A DNA stretch of 34,184 nt. Origin: an uncultured Thermodesulfobacteriota bacterium (GTDB lineage: Bacteria > Desulfobacterota > S145-22). Positions 13,864 to 21,647 of this stretch are shown here, in pieces; within the stretch, counting starts at the first letter, position 1; every line of letters begins with the position of its first letter. The notes beneath the pieces were generated by a model. The model was not told where the DNA came from. It was given only the letters and a program-made list of their open reading frames with translations, and searched no databases. The position numbers and the translations under genes are program-made. The stretch lies in NCBI GenBank assembly GCA_964589315.1, contig CAZPTH010000003.1, positions 1-34,184 on the forward strand, read 5' to 3'.

Positions 13864-14877
13864 CTACAGTCGTTTGAGTCCGAGGGATTCCATGTCCCAT
13901 AAGGGGGAGACTGTTATGATCTGTTCCTCCCCGGTCTTGATGTCTTTTAAGGAGGCCTGCACCTCCTTTTCATTTCTGCCCTTCCCGTAGCGTGCCACGA
14001 TGCCTGCCGCCTCCTTCAGCCTCTCAGGTGAAAATCCCTGGCCCTTGAGAAGCCCGAGGGGCCCGGGAAAATCCCTGACACTGACAAGGACAGATCCCGC
14101 TTTGAGCAGTTCAGACAGGCGACCGTTTTCCGCCTGGTTTCTACCCACGATGAGATGGGTCCTGTCAGGCCAGATGAAATGTCTCCCGACCCGGCAAAGT
14201 TCAATGTCGTCCCGGTCGATTTCCGGGTATGTCTTTACCACATATTCGATTCTTTTGGAAAGCGTGGGATCGGTAAGGATGCAGCCCCCCGCGGGAGACG
14301 GGTAATCCGTAATACCGAACCTGGCGGCAAGCTCCATCTGCCCCTTGCGGTTTCTCCCGGAAAAGTCGAAAAGGGAAGCCCGATCAACGAGGCCCTCTTT
14401 CTCGGGAATCGTTTCAGGCAGGAGCTTTGCGGACAGGGGGCGGAGGAGGTATCCTTCCATGCCCGAGTCCCGTTCCACGATCCGCATGGTATCCCTCCGC
14501 TGTGACATGGGGCGTTGCCCGATCACCTCTCCCGTGGCCACAAAACGGGCTCCCGTTTCCCTCATGATCTCTCCCGCCTTTTTAACCATGAGGATTTTGC
14601 AGTCGATACAGGGGTTAAAGTTTTTCCCGTACCCGTGCGCTGGTGATTTAAGCATGGGAAAGTAATCCTCCGTGATATCCACTACTGTGAGCTTAATCCC
14701 CCATCTTGTCCGAACCTTCTCGGCCAGGTGGTCGGGGTTTGCGAGGGAGCGGCTTCCGAAAAAAGGGGTCACGAACTTTACAGCCAGAACATCGATCCCC
14801 TGGGCCTCCAGGATTTTGATGGAAAGAATACTGTCCAAACCGCCCGAAAACAGGCAAATTGCTTTGACTGGCTCCAT
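13864..14877 (-). CDS. PP-loop tRNA sulfurtransferase (ThiI/MnmA-like) with a C-terminal DUF814/NFACT-R-like domain
   Basis: SGGLDS PP-loop, NPCIDCK, GEVIGQRPMSQ, PAGGCILTD, GRHF and GRN motifs; no N-terminal THUMP domain. Confidence 0.8.
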   Translation of the reverse strand: MEPVKAICLFSGGLDSILSIKILEAQGIDVLAVKFVTPFFGSRSLANPDHLAEKVRTRWGIKLTVVDITEDYFPMLKSPAHGYGKNFNPCIDCKILMVKKAGEIMRETGARFVATGEVIGQRPMSQRRDTMRIVERDSGMEGYLLRPLSAKLLPETIPEKEGLVDRASLFDFSGRNRKGQMELAARFGITDYPSPAGGCILTDPTLSKRIEYVVKTYPEIDRDDIELCRVGRHFIWPDRTHLIVGRNQAENGRLSELLKAGSVLVSVRDFPGPLGLLKGQGFSPERLKEAAGIVARYGKGRNEKEVQASLKDIKTGEEQIITVSPLWDMESLGLKRL

Positions 14878-14981: not shown

Positions 14982-15944
14982 TTACGGAGCCCCGGCCGAC
15001 TTTTTTTGCCCCGTGTCGTGAGGGGACCCCATCCCGAGGGAGGAATAGATGAAATTTCGGGCCCTTTTTCCCATCTCTGTGGAACGGCCCAGGTACCAGG
15101 CCCCACCCGCCAGGATGAGGAGACACAGGAGGACTGCCAGCCATTTCAGGGGACTTTTCTTTGAGGATTTCACGTCTGGCTCGGTGTCGAATCGCCGGGT
15201 CCCGGCCATCACCTTGTCATCCAGGACGGCCAGGGTAATGGAGATGTTGTCTTTCCCGCCCGCGGCGTTCGCCGCGGAGACCAGGCGCCGGATGGCCTCC
15301 TTGGGGCTGTGATCGAGGAGCACGTCTCTGATTTCCGATTCAGGCACCTCGTCGTAGAGGCCATCGGAGCAAAGGAGGACCTGATCGCTGGGGCGTAATA
15401 CGATCTGGCGGTAGTCGAACTTCTGTTCGGGTGAGATTCCCAGGGCGTTGATGATGACATGGCGCTTTGGATGGGTTAAAGCCTCCTCCGGGGAGAGGAC
15501 GCCTTCGTTGACCATTTTGCGCACCAGGGTATGGTCCTCCGTCAAGGCTTGCAGGGTTTTTCCCCTTAAGAGGTAAGCCCGGCTGTCTCCCACCTGCAGG
15601 AGATGGAGCTCCGGGAAGCGGATGACGGTGGCCGTCAACGTGGTTGCCATTCCCTTGCATTCGGGATGTTGATTCACGTAGTTTCTGATGCCTTGATTGG
15701 CCGCTGTGACGGCCTGGGACAGGAAGGTCTTGGGATCCAGCTTTTCGGCCTTCTCGAAGTGCTGTTGAAGGGTCTGAACGGCCAGGCGGCTGGCGATTTC
15801 CCCGCACATGTTTCCACCCACGCCGTCCGCGACTACCATCAGGAGGAGGTCCTGCTTCTTGAAGACGGCGCAGGCATCCTGGTTGTTGGATCGCTTGCGG
15901 CCCGTGTCCGTGATGGAAAAGGCCTGTATGCGCTGAGTCGCCAC
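14982..15944 (-). CDS. PP2C-family (Stp1/PrpC-like) Ser/Thr phosphatase with C-terminal TM anchor
   Basis: TDTGRKRSNNQD, VADGVGG, QVGDSRAY, LCSDGL, GGKDNIS; TM segment WLAVLLCLLILAGGAWYL. Confidence 0.93.
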   Translation of the reverse strand: MATQRIQAFSITDTGRKRSNNQDACAVFKKQDLLLMVVADGVGGNMCGEIASRLAVQTLQQHFEKAEKLDPKTFLSQAVTAANQGIRNYVNQHPECKGMATTLTATVIRFPELHLLQVGDSRAYLLRGKTLQALTEDHTLVRKMVNEGVLSPEEALTHPKRHVIINALGISPEQKFDYRQIVLRPSDQVLLCSDGLYDEVPESEIRDVLLDHSPKEAIRRLVSAANAAGGKDNISITLAVLDDKVMAGTRRFDTEPDVKSSKKSPLKWLAVLLCLLILAGGAWYLGRSTEMGKRARNFIYSSLGMGSPHDTGQKKSAGAP

Positions 15945-16484: not shown

Positions 16485-18320
16485 TTAATTTCGTGGAAAT
16501 GCCCCTTCAAAGCCGACGGGTTTATCATTGTTTTCAGGTTCGGCGTTCTTTTTGCCTGTGTGCTTGCTCCCGGAAGGATGTTCCAGGTCTTTTAATGATT
16601 TTTTGATTGATTTGAAGAAATGCCCGATCTGCTTATCTATGGTAAGGGTCTCATTCTCTTTCTTTTTTGCCTTTTTTTCATGTTGCTGAGGAGGAGATTG
16701 CTTCTTGATCTGTTGCTCGGTACTGTAGGTGCCTTCCGAACCCTCTTTGATCTTTTGACTCGGTTTCCGTTTCTTTGATTTTTTTGCGACGGGTCGCCTT
16801 TTGTGTTTCTGCCTTGTTTTTTGTGTGCCTGTACCGGATTCCCGGGTCTTTTCGGAACTTTCCTTTAATTCTCCAGAAGGGGTCATCTCGACGACCGTTC
16901 CGCCCCGGGGGGATTCCCCGGAAGATGTGGAAGTTACCTTATGCTCGGGTTTTCTTGGTTGTTTTTTTTGTACGTTCTCCTGAGGCACCACGGTTTCTTC
17001 CTGGTCTTTCTTATATTCTCCGGAAGGGGTCATTTCGACGATTTCCCCTTCCGGGGCAGTCTCCACGGAGGGGGGGGACGTTTCTCGTTTTTCCTCTCCC
17101 TCTCCAGATTCCGGTTTGCCTACACTCTTTTCAATTTCTTCGAGAACAGGGGTGACATTTTCCTCAGACGAACCTTCCGCCGCCGGCTTCACGGAGCCGT
17201 TTCCCTCCAGACCAGTTTTTTTTTCTGCCTTTTTTGGAGGGGGCGATGGAGGAGACGTCTCCTGGACCTTTTTTTCGATCGCAGGGGCCTTAACAACAGG
17301 GATAATACTCTTTTTTCGGTTCATGAACCAGTAGGTAACCACCACAATCGTGGCCCCTAACAGGAGGATGGCGATAATGATCCAGATGAGAGGAGAGACC
17401 TTTTTCCCCGTCGCTTGAAGAAAACTTCCTGTCCCTTTTTTTATCCCCCCTTCCGACGCCTTTTCTGGGGAAGGGATTGAGGATTTTGGCTTTTTCTCGG
17501 GAGTTGCGCCCAGGGAATCTAAGTCCTTTAGAACCTCCGCGGCAGAGGAGTAGCGTTTTGCGGGATCCTTTTCCAGGAGCTTGAGGATGATAACAGCGAG
17601 GGGTTTCGGGATGTCCTTTTTGATCTTCTTGGGATCGGGAGGAGGGGTTTCCGCGTGGGCCTTCATGATTTCGAAGTCTGAATTTCCAAAAAAGGGCAGT
17701 TTCCCCGTGACCATCTGGAACAGGGTAATTCCCATGGCATAGAGATCACTTCGGGCGTCCACGGATTTTCCCTTGATCTGCTCGGGAGACATGTACCACA
17801 GGGTGCCGAGTCTGACACCGGCCCGCGTGTGACCCTGTTCCGTGGTGGCCTTGGCAATACCGAAATCGGTGACCTTGACATGCCCTTCCGGGGTGATCAT
17901 GATATTTCCCGGTTTCAGATCCCGGTGGATCACACCCTTGGAATGCATGAAGGCGAGGGCTTCCAGGACCTGGCGGGTTATCCGAGTCGCCGTGGCAGGG
18001 GGCATCGCCCCCTTCTCCTGGATGATTTTATCGAGGGTTTGTCCCTCCACGAATTCCATGACGAGGAAGAGACGACCGTCACGTTCCAGGAGATTATGGA
18101 CATTTACCACATTGGGGTGGTTCAGCTTGGCCTGGATTTTCGCCTCACGGATGAAACGCTCACGCATTTCGGAATTGGAGGCCAGTTCCGGGGAGAGGTC
18201 TTTGATGGCAACCAGTTGTTCCAGGCGGACATGGACGCCCTGGTAAACAACACCCATACCGCCTTCACCAATCTTTTTGAGGATTTTGTAATCCCCTATT
18301 ACGGTTCCAAGAAGCGACAT
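16485..18320 (-). CDS. Membrane-anchored Hanks-type Ser/Thr protein kinase with low-complexity C-terminal tail
   Basis: GEGGMGVV, VAIK, HRDLKPGN, DFG, GTLWYMSPEQ; TM LIWIIIAILLLGATIVVVTYWF; K/E/P/S-rich tail with no PASTA repeats recognised. Confidence 0.93.
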   Translation of the reverse strand: MSLLGTVIGDYKILKKIGEGGMGVVYQGVHVRLEQLVAIKDLSPELASNSEMRERFIREAKIQAKLNHPNVVNVHNLLERDGRLFLVMEFVEGQTLDKIIQEKGAMPPATATRITRQVLEALAFMHSKGVIHRDLKPGNIMITPEGHVKVTDFGIAKATTEQGHTRAGVRLGTLWYMSPEQIKGKSVDARSDLYAMGITLFQMVTGKLPFFGNSDFEIMKAHAETPPPDPKKIKKDIPKPLAVIILKLLEKDPAKRYSSAAEVLKDLDSLGATPEKKPKSSIPSPEKASEGGIKKGTGSFLQATGKKVSPLIWIIIAILLLGATIVVVTYWFMNRKKSIIPVVKAPAIEKKVQETSPPSPPPKKAEKKTGLEGNGSVKPAAEGSSEENVTPVLEEIEKSVGKPESGEGEEKRETSPPSVETAPEGEIVEMTPSGEYKKDQEETVVPQENVQKKQPRKPEHKVTSTSSGESPRGGTVVEMTPSGELKESSEKTRESGTGTQKTRQKHKRRPVAKKSKKRKPSQKIKEGSEGTYSTEQQIKKQSPPQQHEKKAKKKENETLTIDKQIGHFFKSIKKSLKDLEHPSGSKHTGKKNAEPENNDKPVGFEGAFPRN

Positions 18321-18338
18321 GGCTGCCTCTATCTTCCC

Positions 18339-20033
18339 TTATTCAGGCTTTTTGAAGATGAAGGTTGCCATCTTGCCTTTTCCGATGATGATGACATCTC
18401 CGGGTTTCAGGACCTCAGACTTGATCTGGTGACCCATCGTGTTGAGAAAGGTTCCGTTTGCCGAGGCAAGGTCTTTGACGACGATATTTCCCCCCTCTTC
18501 CCCGATCCAGGCGTGTTCACGGGAGACGTGGGGGTTGTCGATAACGATGTCACATTTGGCGGCGTCGCGCCCGATCTTCAACCCTTCCTTTGAGATTTCG
18601 AAGGTCTTCCCCTCTACGGGGCCGTCTTTCCCCACGAGAATGCCTGAGGGACCGGGGGCTTCCTTCGGTTTTTCGATCAGTGTAACCTCTTCAACGGGTT
18701 CCGGGGGAGCGACAGACGAGACAGATGGTTCTCCCCTTTTCCCACCTTTTTTCGCGATCACGATCACGATAATCAGGAGAATGAGGATTCCTACCCCGAT
18801 CCCCACGTAGAGCGCGACCTTCTTCCAAGACGTGGGGCATTCCCCTTTCGTTATCTTTTCCTGGGTAAGGCGCTGCAGCTTGAGGACATCGGGCTGCTGC
18901 GGCATCAGTTTCAGAACGGCGTCACAATATTTCATGACGGCGTCACATTCCTGTGCCTTATAGGCCTTCAGGGCCTGTGCCCACAGCTTGTTGAAAAGGC
19001 TTTCCTCAGTGGTCTTGATCCCCGCCCGGGCGATAAATTCCTTGACGGTATTGATGGGAACCAGAAAATTGAATCCCTGGATCTGCTGAGATCCCGACGC
19101 GGTTTTTTCGATGCTGCCCAGTGTGGACATGCCGATGACTTTGCCATTGGCGTCAAACGCCGGGCCTCCGCTGTTCCCGTGGGCGATGGGGGTATCGGTC
19201 TGGATGAGAGAGGCCCCCGTCGCGGTCAGCTTCTTCCCTGAGATGTGTCCCACGGTGACGGTGCAGTCCAGGATATTTTCCAGGCTTTTCTGAAGCATGG
19301 CATGGGAGAGGATAACGCCGGGGTACCCCGCGGCGTAGACGACTTCGCCCAGTTGGACAGAACTGGAATCCCCAAGGATGGCGACAGGCAGGTCCTTGGC
19401 CTCGATCTTGATGATGGCGATGTCTTTTCCCGTTTCCGATTCGTATTCAAATCCCGGGATATCCAGTTTTCCCGCGAAGCGTCCCATGGGGGGGCTGTAA
19501 TCCTTGACCTCGGCGGGATACTGCTTCTTGTTGGAAAGGAGGACCTTGAGGTCTTTCTTTATCGCCACCATGGTTTTGGGCTTCAGGATGCCATACAACT
19601 GGATGATAGCCGCCTTGATGCTCGCAGGATTGTTTTCTACCTTTCCGGACTGGATAAGTTTCGGGATGAAATGTTTCTGGATAACCTGCATCAGAAACAT
19701 TCTTTCGAGCTGTTTGTCGTTTTTCTCATAGTAAAACTGAACGACATGCCCGTTGGTGCAGATATACCCGTTCGGATTGATGATAAATCCGGACCCCGTG
19801 GATCCTATGCCCACGTCGTTGAAGGTCTTCAACCCGCTTTTCGTTTTTATTTGAACGCTTCCAGAAACTTGTGAAACGATGAAGACCACCGACGGCTTTA
19901 CCCGAAGAAGCATCATCTGGGCCGCTTCGTTGGCAGCATGGGATTTCCCCGGCAAAAGAAAGAGACCCGTAAAAATGAACAAAAAGATAATTAGAAAGAC
20001 CTTCCCCTGTTTCAAAGCTCTTCCACCTCTCAT
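18339..20033 (-). CDS. Trypsin/HtrA-like serine protease + TPR-like helices + TM + FHA domain fusion
   Basis: Signal peptide ending SHA; GSGFII, TNGHVV (His), KDIAIIK (Asp), TDTPIAHGNSGGP (Ser); TM VALYVGIGVGILILLIIVIVIA; FHA motifs IGRD, VSREH, DLASANGTFLN. Confidence 0.9.
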   Translation of the reverse strand: MRGGRALKQGKVFLIIFLFIFTGLFLLPGKSHAANEAAQMMLLRVKPSVVFIVSQVSGSVQIKTKSGLKTFNDVGIGSTGSGFIINPNGYICTNGHVVQFYYEKNDKQLERMFLMQVIQKHFIPKLIQSGKVENNPASIKAAIIQLYGILKPKTMVAIKKDLKVLLSNKKQYPAEVKDYSPPMGRFAGKLDIPGFEYESETGKDIAIIKIEAKDLPVAILGDSSSVQLGEVVYAAGYPGVILSHAMLQKSLENILDCTVTVGHISGKKLTATGASLIQTDTPIAHGNSGGPAFDANGKVIGMSTLGSIEKTASGSQQIQGFNFLVPINTVKEFIARAGIKTTEESLFNKLWAQALKAYKAQECDAVMKYCDAVLKLMPQQPDVLKLQRLTQEKITKGECPTSWKKVALYVGIGVGILILLIIVIVIAKKGGKRGEPSVSSVAPPEPVEEVTLIEKPKEAPGPSGILVGKDGPVEGKTFEISKEGLKIGRDAAKCDIVIDNPHVSREHAWIGEEGGNIVVKDLASANGTFLNTMGHQIKSEVLKPGDVIIIGKGKMATFIFKKPE

Positions 20034-20103
20034 GTATTCCTCCCTCTTTTTGAATGATTAAAACCTATACCTTGAATCACAGCCCTAAATTATTCACCAT
20101 ATT

Positions 20104-20195
20104 GTAAAAGTCTTTTACCTTCTGGCTTGCTTAATGTCAATAATGGGGGAGGTGTCGCTGACTTACTTGACAAACCCTCTTCAGATTCGTAAAGG
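20104..20195. promoter_or_regulatory. Back-to-back sigma70-like promoters with a palindromic operator candidate
   Basis: Minus TTGACA(20140-20135)-N17-TAAAAG; plus TTGACA(20167-20172)-N17-TAAAGG; palindrome GTAAAAG-T-CTTTTAC at 20104-20118. Confidence 0.45.
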
Positions 20196-20232
20196 GTAGT
20201 AACAAAATCTTAAGGGGAATGGAACTTCTTTA

Positions 20233-20754
20233 ATGTCTGAACGAAAAGGACTTGTCATCGTCAACACGGGGAATGGCAAAGGGAAGACAACAGCGGCACT
20301 TGGATTGGCCTTCCGGGCCCTGGGACATGGGTTTCGGGTTTTGATGGTCCAGTTCATCAAGGGATCATGGAAGTACGGGGAACTCGAATCGGCAAAGAAG
20401 TTTGAAAATTTTACCTTGATTCCCATGGGGCGCGGGTTTGTCTCCACGGACGGGAAAATTGCGGAGGAGGACCGTAAGGCGGCAGGCGAGGCCCTTTCAT
20501 ATGCGCAGGCTCACATGAAAGACTACGATATGGTCATCCTGGATGAGGTCATTTACGCCATAGGGTTTGGGCTCGTAGACGTGAAAGAGGTTGTGGACCT
20601 GATCAAGGAGAAGCCCGCAGGGGTTCACCTGGTCCTGACGGGGAGGAACGCCCCGGAGGAAATCCTGGAGAGGGCAGACCTGGTGACGGAAATGAGGGAA
20701 ATCAAGCATCCCTATCAGAAGGGGATCAAGGCGCAACGGGGGGTCGAGTTTTGA
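20233..20754 (+). CDS. cobO: Cob(I)yrinic acid a,c-diamide adenosyltransferase (CobO/BtuR)
   Basis: TGNGKGKTTAALG, VQFIKG, ILDE, VLTGR, DLVTEMREIKHP. Confidence 0.95.
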   Translation: MSERKGLVIVNTGNGKGKTTAALGLAFRALGHGFRVLMVQFIKGSWKYGELESAKKFENFTLIPMGRGFVSTDGKIAEEDRKAAGEALSYAQAHMKDYDMVILDEVIYAIGFGLVDVKEVVDLIKEKPAGVHLVLTGRNAPEEILERADLVTEMREIKHPYQKGIKAQRGVEF

Positions 20755-21647
20755 GCCAGACGGGATTGGAGTTCGGTTACTGTCAAAAGTATAATAAAAA
20801 AATTCCCCTCGATGAAAACACAGACTGTGTCCATCCCCATGAATATTGCAGGTTTCGGGCTTCCTGCATCATCAATGAACTTGGTAAGGAGAATCGCCGT
20901 CGCAAGCGGATGGCCCAGGCAGGGAGGCTCGGGGTTCTCTATGGCATCGGGGTAGGCCCTGGAGACCCGTCCATGATTACGCTCCAGGCCATCGATTGTC
21001 TGAAACGCCTCGATGTCATCTTTGCCTCCAAAAAGGCGGGTGTCGCGGAAAGTATCGCCCATACGGTGGTAAAGGAGCACCTTTCTCCCTCGGCGGAGGT
21101 TCGGTTCCTCGAGTTTCAGGCCACCTATGACCGGGAGGCCTTTGATGCCGTGTGGGCGGAAAACGCGAAGAAAGTGGGGGAAGTCCTGAAAACGGGAAAG
21201 GACTGTGGCTACATTACCCTGGGGGATCCCTCCCTTTACAGCACCTTTTCACACCTGATACGGAACCTCCGGAAACAGGAACCCGCGGTAAGAATCGAAA
21301 TCATTCCCGGTGTTTCGATGGTAATGGCCGCCGCAAATCTCCTGAATGTCCCCCTCGCCATCGATGGGGAGACATTGTCTCTGATCCCCTCGGCCCAGAT
21401 TGACCCGGAGCATCTCCACAAGTTGATACGGACCTCCGACAACCTTGTTTTCATGAAGATCCCAAGCGATGCCCAGGAGCTCCTCAGACGTCTCGAGGAA
21501 GAGGGGCTTCTGCACCATGCCATCTGGATCCAGAAATGCTGCCTCCCAGGCCAGCGGGTCGTAAAGGAGTTGAACGTGGAGACCCTGGAAGAGGAACAGG
21601 AGAGGTATTTGTCTCTCATGATTGTGAAAAAGAAGGTCATGATTTGA
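20751..21647 (+). CDS. cbiL: Precorrin-2/cobalt-factor II C20-methyltransferase with a possible Cys-rich N-terminal extension
   Basis: LYGIGVGPGDPSMIT, TLGDPSLYSTF, IIPGVS, YLSLMIV. The TTG start overlaps the cobO stop; alternative in-frame ATG at 20910. Confidence 0.85.
   Translation: MSQTGLEFGYCQKYNKKIPLDENTDCVHPHEYCRFRASCIINELGKENRRRKRMAQAGRLGVLYGIGVGPGDPSMITLQAIDCLKRLDVIFASKKAGVAESIAHTVVKEHLSPSAEVRFLEFQATYDREAFDAVWAENAKKVGEVLKTGKDCGYITLGDPSLYSTFSHLIRNLRKQEPAVRIEIIPGVSMVMAAANLLNVPLAIDGETLSLIPSAQIDPEHLHKLIRTSDNLVFMKIPSDAQELLRRLEEEGLLHHAIWIQKCCLPGQRVVKELNVETLEEEQERYLSLMIVKKKVMI

Follow-up and report, generated by a model that had tools for sequence, protein, structure and literature searches.

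An exported HtrA-fold protease predicted to be tethered through the membrane to a cytoplasmic FHA domain and encoded beside a Hanks-type kinase in an uncultured Thermodesulfobacteriota bacterium

In the usual picture, PDZ domains gate HtrA proteases from within the periplasm, and few outputs are known for bacterial Hanks kinases. A gene of an uncultured Thermodesulfobacteriota bacterium touches on both subjects and raises the question of what an FHA domain, a reader of phosphothreonine (pThr), could do for a protease that is predicted to lie on the other side of the membrane. The gene occupies positions 18339-20033 (minus strand) of contig CAZPTH010000003.1, of which we analysed a stretch of 34,184 nucleotides, positions 1 to 34,184, referred to here as the window. 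Its open reading frame (ORF) encodes 564 amino acids, is conserved among relatives and is real. An earlier, sequence-only reading had described the product as an exported HtrA-like protease without PDZ domains, wired through the membrane to an FHA domain whose pThr binding replaces PDZ gating. We found that most of this description was borne out, that the gene heads a cluster with a Hanks-type kinase, a PP2C phosphatase and a second FHA protein, and that the protease-FHA protein is probably coupled to this co-encoded kinase. The FHA domain does not, however, appear to take the place of PDZ.

In order, the protein comprises a signal peptide, an HtrA-fold protease, TPR-like helices, one transmembrane (TM) helix, a disordered linker and an FHA domain (Table 1), an arrangement in which we place high confidence, architecture and topology being judged jointly. 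Pfam matched Trypsin_2 to residues 80-302 (E 2e-24) and FHA to residues 486-551 (E 2.6e-16; 60.2 bits against a gathering cut-off of 20.7 for PF00498), and reported no PDZ family for the 564-residue protein. The intact triad seen at the outset is found in the motifs TNGH (His96), GKDIAI (Asp204) and GNSGGP (Ser288), and the FHA signature residues G488-R489, S504-R-E-H507 and N526-G527-T528 are likewise all present. An AlphaFold2 model computed from an alignment of 49 relatives reached a mean predicted local distance difference test score (pLDDT) of 86.5, with values below 50 only at residues 1-4 and in the linker at 430-458. As had been noted from the single sequence, this linker is rich in Pro and Glu. 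It is rich in Ser as well, and holds the motif EEVTLIE, which contains Thr451. Read by eye, the N-terminus resembles a signal peptide, with four basic residues, a 16-residue hydrophobic core and S-H-A/A around residue 33; the model places a helix at residues 5-24.

Because a signal peptide is followed by a single later TM helix, the protease is predicted to be periplasmic and the FHA domain cytoplasmic (type I, N-out/C-in), a prediction drawn from sequence rules and from the agreement among family members. An N-terminal hydrophobic segment is present in 81 of the 83 evaluable family representatives, in agreement with export. The KKGGKR sequence that follows the TM helix had been read as positive-inside, and the net charge of the first eight post-TM residues averages +2.9 over 102 representatives that have protease, TM helix and FHA domain and are mutually less than 50% identical. 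In the neighbouring kinase the catalytic domain precedes its own TM helix, and the kinase and FHA domains are therefore predicted to lie on the same, cytoplasmic side. The type I topology proposed earlier is supported by each of these features: signal peptide, single stop-transfer helix, post-TM charge and orientation of the kinase domain.

The protease core superposed (VIA-align) on Deg1, DegQ, DegP, M. tuberculosis Rv0983, HtrA1, MucD and DegS, with Z-scores of 26-28 and root-mean-square deviations of about 2 Å over 185-208 aligned residues within the model range 31-340. Foldseek E-values against solved HtrA-family structures were about 1e-16, and identity in the aligned core was 30-40%. The proposed HtrA-like character is thus confirmed at the level of fold. 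The catalytic His96 and Asp204 have 107 residues between them. Since the family profile fits solved HtrAs in two separate parts (70-98 and 200-324), which in MucD are linked by just about 23 residues, we put the net His/Asp insertion at about 78 residues; the sequence-only reading had placed it correctly and overestimated it at about 100. In the model the insertion consists of an antiparallel pair of helices (106-129 and 136-153; pLDDT 91-97) and a loop (181-200; pLDDT 67-78), and the beta-hairpin 154-180 between these two parts probably corresponds to canonical HtrA strands. The helical hairpin aligned to none of the solved HtrAs compared, and no Pfam match falls within residues 97-202. Among the best 120 matches drawn from a 5.8-billion-protein collection, all 118 full-length proteins keep the triad and have a His-Asp spacing of 80-113 residues; the other two are N-terminally truncated. 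Loops after His57 in chymotrypsin-fold enzymes form the rim of the active-site cleft, and by analogy the hairpin that follows the catalytic His would lie at this rim.

Behind the protease, the TPR-like domain is modelled as three helices (346-359, 363-376 and 381-395; pLDDT 95-97), where a helical pair with three Cys had been described; its match to Fis1_TPR_C (E 3e-4, 21.3 bits) does not reach the cut-off of 25.3. The TPR-like character and Cys 363, 370 and 399 are there as reported. Three Cys are nevertheless found only in the 16 closest matches (16/16), most others having none, and the three-Cys motif was rejected as a family-wide feature.

The protease-FHA gene is the first of a co-directional four-gene cluster with gaps of 18, 24 and 12 nt, in which the kinase gene starts 18 nt past it and is followed by the genes for a zinc-ribbon-FHA protein and the phosphatase (Table 1). 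Beyond its catalytic domain and TM helix, the kinase carries a tail of about 270 residues (about 341-611; window 16485-17300, minus strand) that is rich in Lys, Glu, Pro and Ser, probably disordered and predicted to be periplasmic. Short islands of this tail (SIIPVV, ENVTPV-EE-EK, VEM[TS]PSG and the C-terminal TIDK..GHFFKS-KKS-K) are kept in 4/4 close relatives; VEM[TS]PSG occurs twice in the tail encoded in the window and in that of one relative (L007). The phosphatase ends in a hydrophobic segment (LKWLAVLLCLLILAGGAWYL), and therefore kinase, phosphatase and protease-FHA protein are all predicted to be membrane-anchored. The zinc-ribbon-FHA protein contains three K-T-x-[IV]-[VF] motifs (EKTEIV, DKTSVF and DKTQIF) between ribbon and FHA domain. 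These motifs are kept in close relatives, and the acidobacterial orthologues have KTRLE (KTRME in L041) and KTVL[LI]. The solved structures closest to the FHA domain of the zinc-ribbon-FHA protein include those of GarA and OdhI, and the available text of PMC8546545 describes an ETTS phospho-motif upstream of the FHA domain in OdhI/GarA, which the motifs of the zinc-ribbon-FHA protein resemble. A promoter and terminator scan of the operon gave nothing above shuffles.

A similar comparison can be made for the linker of the protease-FHA protein itself. The motif [VA]-T-x-[IV]-[EQ] is kept in 16/16 of its closest matches, while the rest of the linker is variable. Across the 102 representatives, T-x-[IVLMF] occurs within the last 30 linker residues in 57, against 24.9 +/- 4.2 (maximum 38) in 500 composition-preserving shuffles. 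This comparative support marks Thr451 as a candidate phospho-site.

The remaining signalling inventory of the metagenome-assembled genome (MAG; 2.46 Mb, 91% complete) is small. Apart from the cluster kinase and its copy on a duplicate contig, no full-length Pkinase match was found in the MAG, the others being one 36-bit partial and one sub-threshold match. The cluster phosphatase is the only PP2C_2 match, and two of the three FHA domains lie in the cluster. The third belongs to an FHA-GAF-HD protein (HD_5, HD-GYP-like) on contig C33 (L003:1369-2859, plus strand), whose gene adjoins that for a Kup-type K+ transporter; it is possible that this protein is a cytoplasmic second-messenger output of the same kinase. 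Three ordinary HtrA-like genes are also present in the genome. The duplicate contig (C4:25424-29970, L002), compared with window positions 16840-21533, holds a 99.85% identical copy of the protease gene and of part of the kinase gene, and the contig's final 55 nt correspond to a point about 148 nt farther along the kinase tail; this copy may reflect strain redundancy or a contig-end assembly artefact. Four DNA runs, all from one study and bearing the label hydrothermal vent metagenome, contain the stretch, and no RNA run was listed as containing it.

The gene is no one-off, but typifies a large family that is uncharacterised. The full architecture occurs in 107 of the best 120 matches, whose source names include Geobacteraceae, Deltaproteobacteria, Acidobacteria, Blastocatellia and 'bacterium HR13'. 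Full-length matches in species genomes came from Thermodesulfobacteriota MAGs (73-82% identity), Acidobacteriota, Bryobacterales, Pyrinomonadaceae and Kofleriaceae, with others in Plasticicumulans acidivorans DSM 23606 (L014) and a Phormidesmis MAG. A search of 1.84 billion cluster representatives with the family profile returned 3,586 representatives at E<=1e-30; in the ESM Atlas, clusters bear automatic names of the kind 'FHA/Trypsin/Trypsin-like peptidase domain-containing protein'. Within its own phylum the gene is patchy: seven of 301 sampled genomes match at E<=1e-40, all of them in the window's own family, where 6/8 other genomes match, and none was found among the rest of the 301 searched.

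The best 150 representatives (all at E<=6e-88) reveal which parts are held constant. The second protease barrel is found in 149 and the helical domain in 148, an insertion-model match in 110 and the FHA domain in 104. These counts suggest that the conserved core is the periplasmic module with its TM helix and that the cytoplasmic reader is exchangeable. Members without an FHA domain have a rhodanese domain, rhodanese plus cNMP-binding domains, a zinc ribbon or a short tail after the TM helix (P0259, P0183, P0222, P0232 and P0269 are cases in which rhodanese, with or without cNMP-binding, or else a zinc ribbon replaces FHA), and some members have two FHA domains. Where an FHA domain is present, its key positions are strongly constrained: G488, S504, H507, N526 and G527 are invariant in 49/49 aligned relatives with identities as low as about 30%, and at least 90% of the 49 retain R489. 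A kinase-fusion (Rosetta-stone) search was uninformative, its 15 longer proteins including only weak generic trypsin-kinase fusions (P0129, E 2e-5; P0135, E 5e-4); the search for longer proteins also brought up P0121, a TPR-Trypsin_2-FHA protein.

These data divide the earlier proposal that pThr binding replaces PDZ gating into a part that is supported and a part that is not supported as it was put. The link to Thr phosphorylation is supported, with a kinase, a PP2C phosphatase and a second FHA protein in the operon and with the same gene set recurring in Acidobacteriota. The substitution of FHA for PDZ is unsupported, because a PDZ domain acts in the protease's own compartment, whereas the FHA domain is predicted to sit on the opposite side of the membrane, at the end of a disordered linker of about 35 residues. 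Moreover, the PDZ position of HtrAs is held by the periplasmic helical domain, which is more constant in the family than FHA. The hairpin and the TPR-like domain are better candidates for PDZ-type substrate gating.

We compared 17 loci with a full-length or near-full-length relative, and in seven of them a kinase gene adjoins the protease gene. Three close relatives (L007, L010 and L011) have all four gene types, and in a fourth (L008) the contig breaks off after the kinase. The acidobacterial loci L017, L018 and L041 show the order protease-FHA, zinc-ribbon-FHA, PP2C, kinase. In L013 a second FHA gene is present before the contig ends, and a cyanobacterial locus (L054) has kinase-like matches nearby. 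Four Pyrinomonadaceae loci with no adjacent kinase (L021, L025, L036 and L045) share a flanking lipoprotein of about 200 amino acids (47-58% identity among the four) and M16 peptidases, and three of them (L021, L025 and L045) also have a convergent REC-GGDEF-EAL gene. A common partner gene for the kinase-less loci was considered and rejected, as nothing is shared across phyla.

Together, these observations are consistent with a model in which the Sec signal peptide would export the HtrA-fold serine protease, the single TM helix would anchor it and the FHA domain would be held in the cytoplasm. The co-encoded Hanks kinase would write pThr marks, the PP2C phosphatase would erase them and the FHA domain would read them. 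Candidate sites for these marks are Thr451 in the protein's own linker, three KT-x-hydrophobic motifs in the zinc-ribbon-FHA protein and loops of the kinase itself. HtrA cores are established trimers, and docking of pThr to FHA in trans, whether it joins protease protomers or binds the protein to the kinase or a partner, could set protease clustering or position. The cytoplasmic phospho-state might thereby control periplasmic proteolysis. The parts of this model that we infer are the topology, the phosphorylation of Thr451, the pThr ligand of the FHA domain, the direction of signalling and the substrate. For the direction, the replacement of FHA by cNMP-binding or rhodanese modules favours a cytoplasmic input and a periplasmic output, and fusions of the periplasmic module to a zinc ribbon or to two FHA domains fit this too.

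Several results weigh against such kinase-controlled, inside-out regulation or positioning of the protease. No kinase or PP2C gene was found within about 8 kb in eight of the 17 loci (in one of these eight, L029, another FHA match lies on the opposite strand about 4 kb upstream). Being kin, the close loci represent one lineage, and therefore independent support comes mainly from the acidobacterial clusters. The absence of FHA from 46 of the 150 representatives implies that the protease module works without it. The linker Thr, which had been suggested to allow self-binding, is a conserved candidate site among the closest matches, but 10 of the 102 FHA-bearing representatives have no linker Thr at all, and the motif is not universal. 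Finally, a single TM helix and a disordered linker are poorly suited to allostery, so that control through assembly or position is the most plausible form. Weighing these points, we give the whole mechanism an even chance at best, and rate the coupling of the protein to its co-encoded kinase clearly higher. A broader version, in which PDZ-less HtrA cores with a hairpin and a TPR-like domain would form a general class of inside-out proteases with interchangeable cytoplasmic readers (FHA, cNMP-binding, rhodanese or zinc ribbon), and in which the sole Hanks kinase here would act by pThr-FHA-driven clustering, is tentative and somewhat unlikely as it stands. If it were true, the internal signalling state would directly set envelope proteolysis.

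Signals could also travel from the outside in. The FHA domain would then dock the protease on the autophosphorylated kinase, and the protease would trim or sense the kinase tail and so set kinase activity, in a manner like that of DegS and RseA. The conserved islands of the long kinase tail point this way, as do the 18-nt spacing of the two genes and the retention of both in the acidobacterial clusters. However, the acidobacterial kinases (L017 and L041) do not share the tail motifs, half of the relatives' loci lack an adjacent kinase, and the cNMP-binding and rhodanese fusions argue for a cytoplasmic input over a mere tether. We regard outside-in signalling as unlikely, with roughly one chance in five.

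An adaptor function of the GarA/OdhI or FhaB/FipA kind, in which phosphorylated Thr451 would bind its own FHA domain in cis to recruit or release a cytoplasmic partner and a constitutive quality-control protease would serve mainly as anchor, seems less probable still. It has to be reconciled with the invariant triad and the conserved periplasmic extras, which indicate selection on the protease, and with the three ordinary HtrA-like genes that this genome already has for quality control. In its favour, residues 433-555 match positions 35-156 of the 158-position FhaB/Rv0019c model at 53.7 bits, although this score is under the cut-off of 125. A Thr motif lies upstream of the FHA domain as it does in OdhI/GarA, and the same two proteins are near structural relatives of the FHA domain of the zinc-ribbon-FHA partner. 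The modelled linker is undocked, at a pLDDT of about 40, though AlphaFold2 cannot model phosphate. That fusion and operon are incidental and the FHA domain a relic, as its absence from the 46 representatives and the eight loci without kinase linkage might suggest, is very improbable given the invariance of the pThr-binding residues in 49/49 relatives, the recurrence of the architecture in several phyla and the retention of the cluster in two.

Kinase-controlled, inside-out regulation or positioning is thus the reading we prefer. The gene and its cluster combine components of known kinds, an HtrA-fold protease and a module of Hanks kinase, PP2C and FHA. With HtrA, DegP, DegQ and DegS the protein shares the chymotrypsin-fold core, the His-Asp-Ser triad, GNSGGP and export (predicted here); it differs in having no PDZ domain, about 78 extra residues between His and Asp, a TPR-like domain and a C-terminal TM helix with a cytoplasmic FHA domain. 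It scored far below the curated S1C cut-offs, with 91.1 bits against 416.2 for the Do family model TIGR02037, and below those of further S1C models (DegS, DegQ and HtrA equivalogs; for example 62.4 against 422.95). The C-terminal PDZ domain by which HtrA/S1C proteins are recognised is missing, and the PDZ-less plant Deg5 (4ic5) is among the structural matches.

On the signalling side, FhaB/FipA (Rv0019c) has the same succession of TM anchor, linker and C-terminal FHA domain, and the actinobacterial fhaA-fhaB-pstP-rodA-pbpA-pknA-pknB cluster likewise includes genes for a Hanks kinase, for a PP2C in the membrane and for another FHA protein. FhaB is, however, a small protein without an external domain, whereas the anchor here follows a 400-residue exported protease; the FhaB model concerned is NF049868, and neither rodA nor pbpA is present in the window. 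OdhI and GarA also have a Thr motif in a disordered segment upstream of FHA. They are soluble metabolic regulators with ETTS, in contrast to EEVTLIE here, and the match to NF041660 reached 48.7 bits against a cut-off of 200. In the T6SS (type VI secretion system), the threonine-phosphorylation pathway proteins PpkA, PppA and Fha1-TagH offer a further parallel, in which an envelope machine is controlled by a Hanks kinase of the membrane together with a PP2C and an FHA reader. The TagH/Fha model TIGR03354 gave 36.2 bits against a cut-off of 120.25, and no T6SS family was found among the window ORFs scanned with Pfam. Self-association of the ABC transporter Rv1747 is driven by pThr-FHA contacts. 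According to the available text of PMC8339232, Rv1747 is a membrane protein in which a Hanks kinase targets both the cytoplasmic FHA domains and Thr residues of the linker. It is a transporter and not a protease, and its FHA domains are N-terminal.

An FHA domain has been linked to a trypsin-like protease before. A table and one sentence in the available part of Tripathi and Sowdhamini 2008 (PMC2605481) report the order FHA-FHA-Tryp in Bacteroides thetaiotaomicron NP_811686.1. That protein has two N-terminal FHA domains, and topology, operon and function are not given in this part, which does not list the order protease-TM-FHA either. Nor is a protease-TM-FHA protein described in the available portions of an eLife 2020 paper on conflict systems (PMC7159879), a 2005 kinase survey (PMC1262709), a 2026 preprint on Esr signalling or PMC12204202. 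No study of such a protein was found in full-text searches of the literature, subscription papers lying outside their scope.

The cluster sits among housekeeping genes (SMC, GltX, LepB, LepA, a SPOR protein, ArgS, CobO, 2-oxoacid:ferredoxin oxidoreductase subunits and MoaA/MoeA), and we rejected a defence or mobile-island reading on this ground. For the window ORFs that were scanned, Pfam reported no secretion-system family. Positions 13864-14877 (minus strand), immediately downstream of the cluster, encode a protein with a ThiI/PP-loop ATPase-like N-terminus and an NFACT-R_2 RNA-binding domain (E 8e-21).

Table 1. Coordinates of the protease-FHA protein and of its gene cluster in the window
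Feature	Residues	Position	Strand	Basis or remark
Signal peptide (predicted)	1-33	19935..20033	-	Basic n-region, hydrophobic core, S-H-A/A site; read by eye
HtrA-fold (S1C-like) protease domain, predicted periplasmic	34-340	19014..19934	-	Pfam, VIA-align, triad
Catalytic codon	His96	19746-19748	-	
Catalytic codon	Asp204	19422-19424	-	
Catalytic codon	Ser288	19170-19172	-	
Insertion 1: antiparallel helical hairpin directly after catalytic His	99-153	19575..19739	-	AlphaFold2
Insertion 2: loop preceding catalytic Asp	181-200	19434..19493	-	AlphaFold2, profile gap against solved HtrAs
TPR-like three-helix domain, predicted periplasmic	341-400	18834..19013	-	AlphaFold2; PDZ position of HtrAs
TM helix, hydrophobic core, then KKGGKR	405-427	18753..18821	-	Kyte-Doolittle maximum 3.2; model helix 402-429
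Disordered linker, predicted cytoplasmic; EEVTLIE (18672-18692) with Thr451	428-463	18645..18752	-	pLDDT about 40
FHA domain, predicted cytoplasmic	464-564	18342..18644	-	Pfam; pThr-binding residues; model pLDDT 91-98
Hanks-type Ser/Thr kinase, 611 aa, one TM helix	Kinase domain 11-265	16485..18320	-	Pkinase E 3e-66
Zinc-ribbon-linker-FHA protein, 167 aa		15957..16460	-	Zn_Ribbon_1 and FHA
PP2C phosphatase (Stp1/IreP-type)		14982..15944	-	NF033484 248.8 bits, cut-off 230

The family is large, spans several phyla and appears unstudied, so that one good experiment would annotate thousands of genes. The minimal inventory found for this bacterium, a single full-length kinase and a single phosphatase with three FHA readers, makes the system unusually tractable. 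A protease whose sole regulatory appendage lies across the membrane would represent a direct route from cytoplasmic phospho-signalling to envelope proteolysis.

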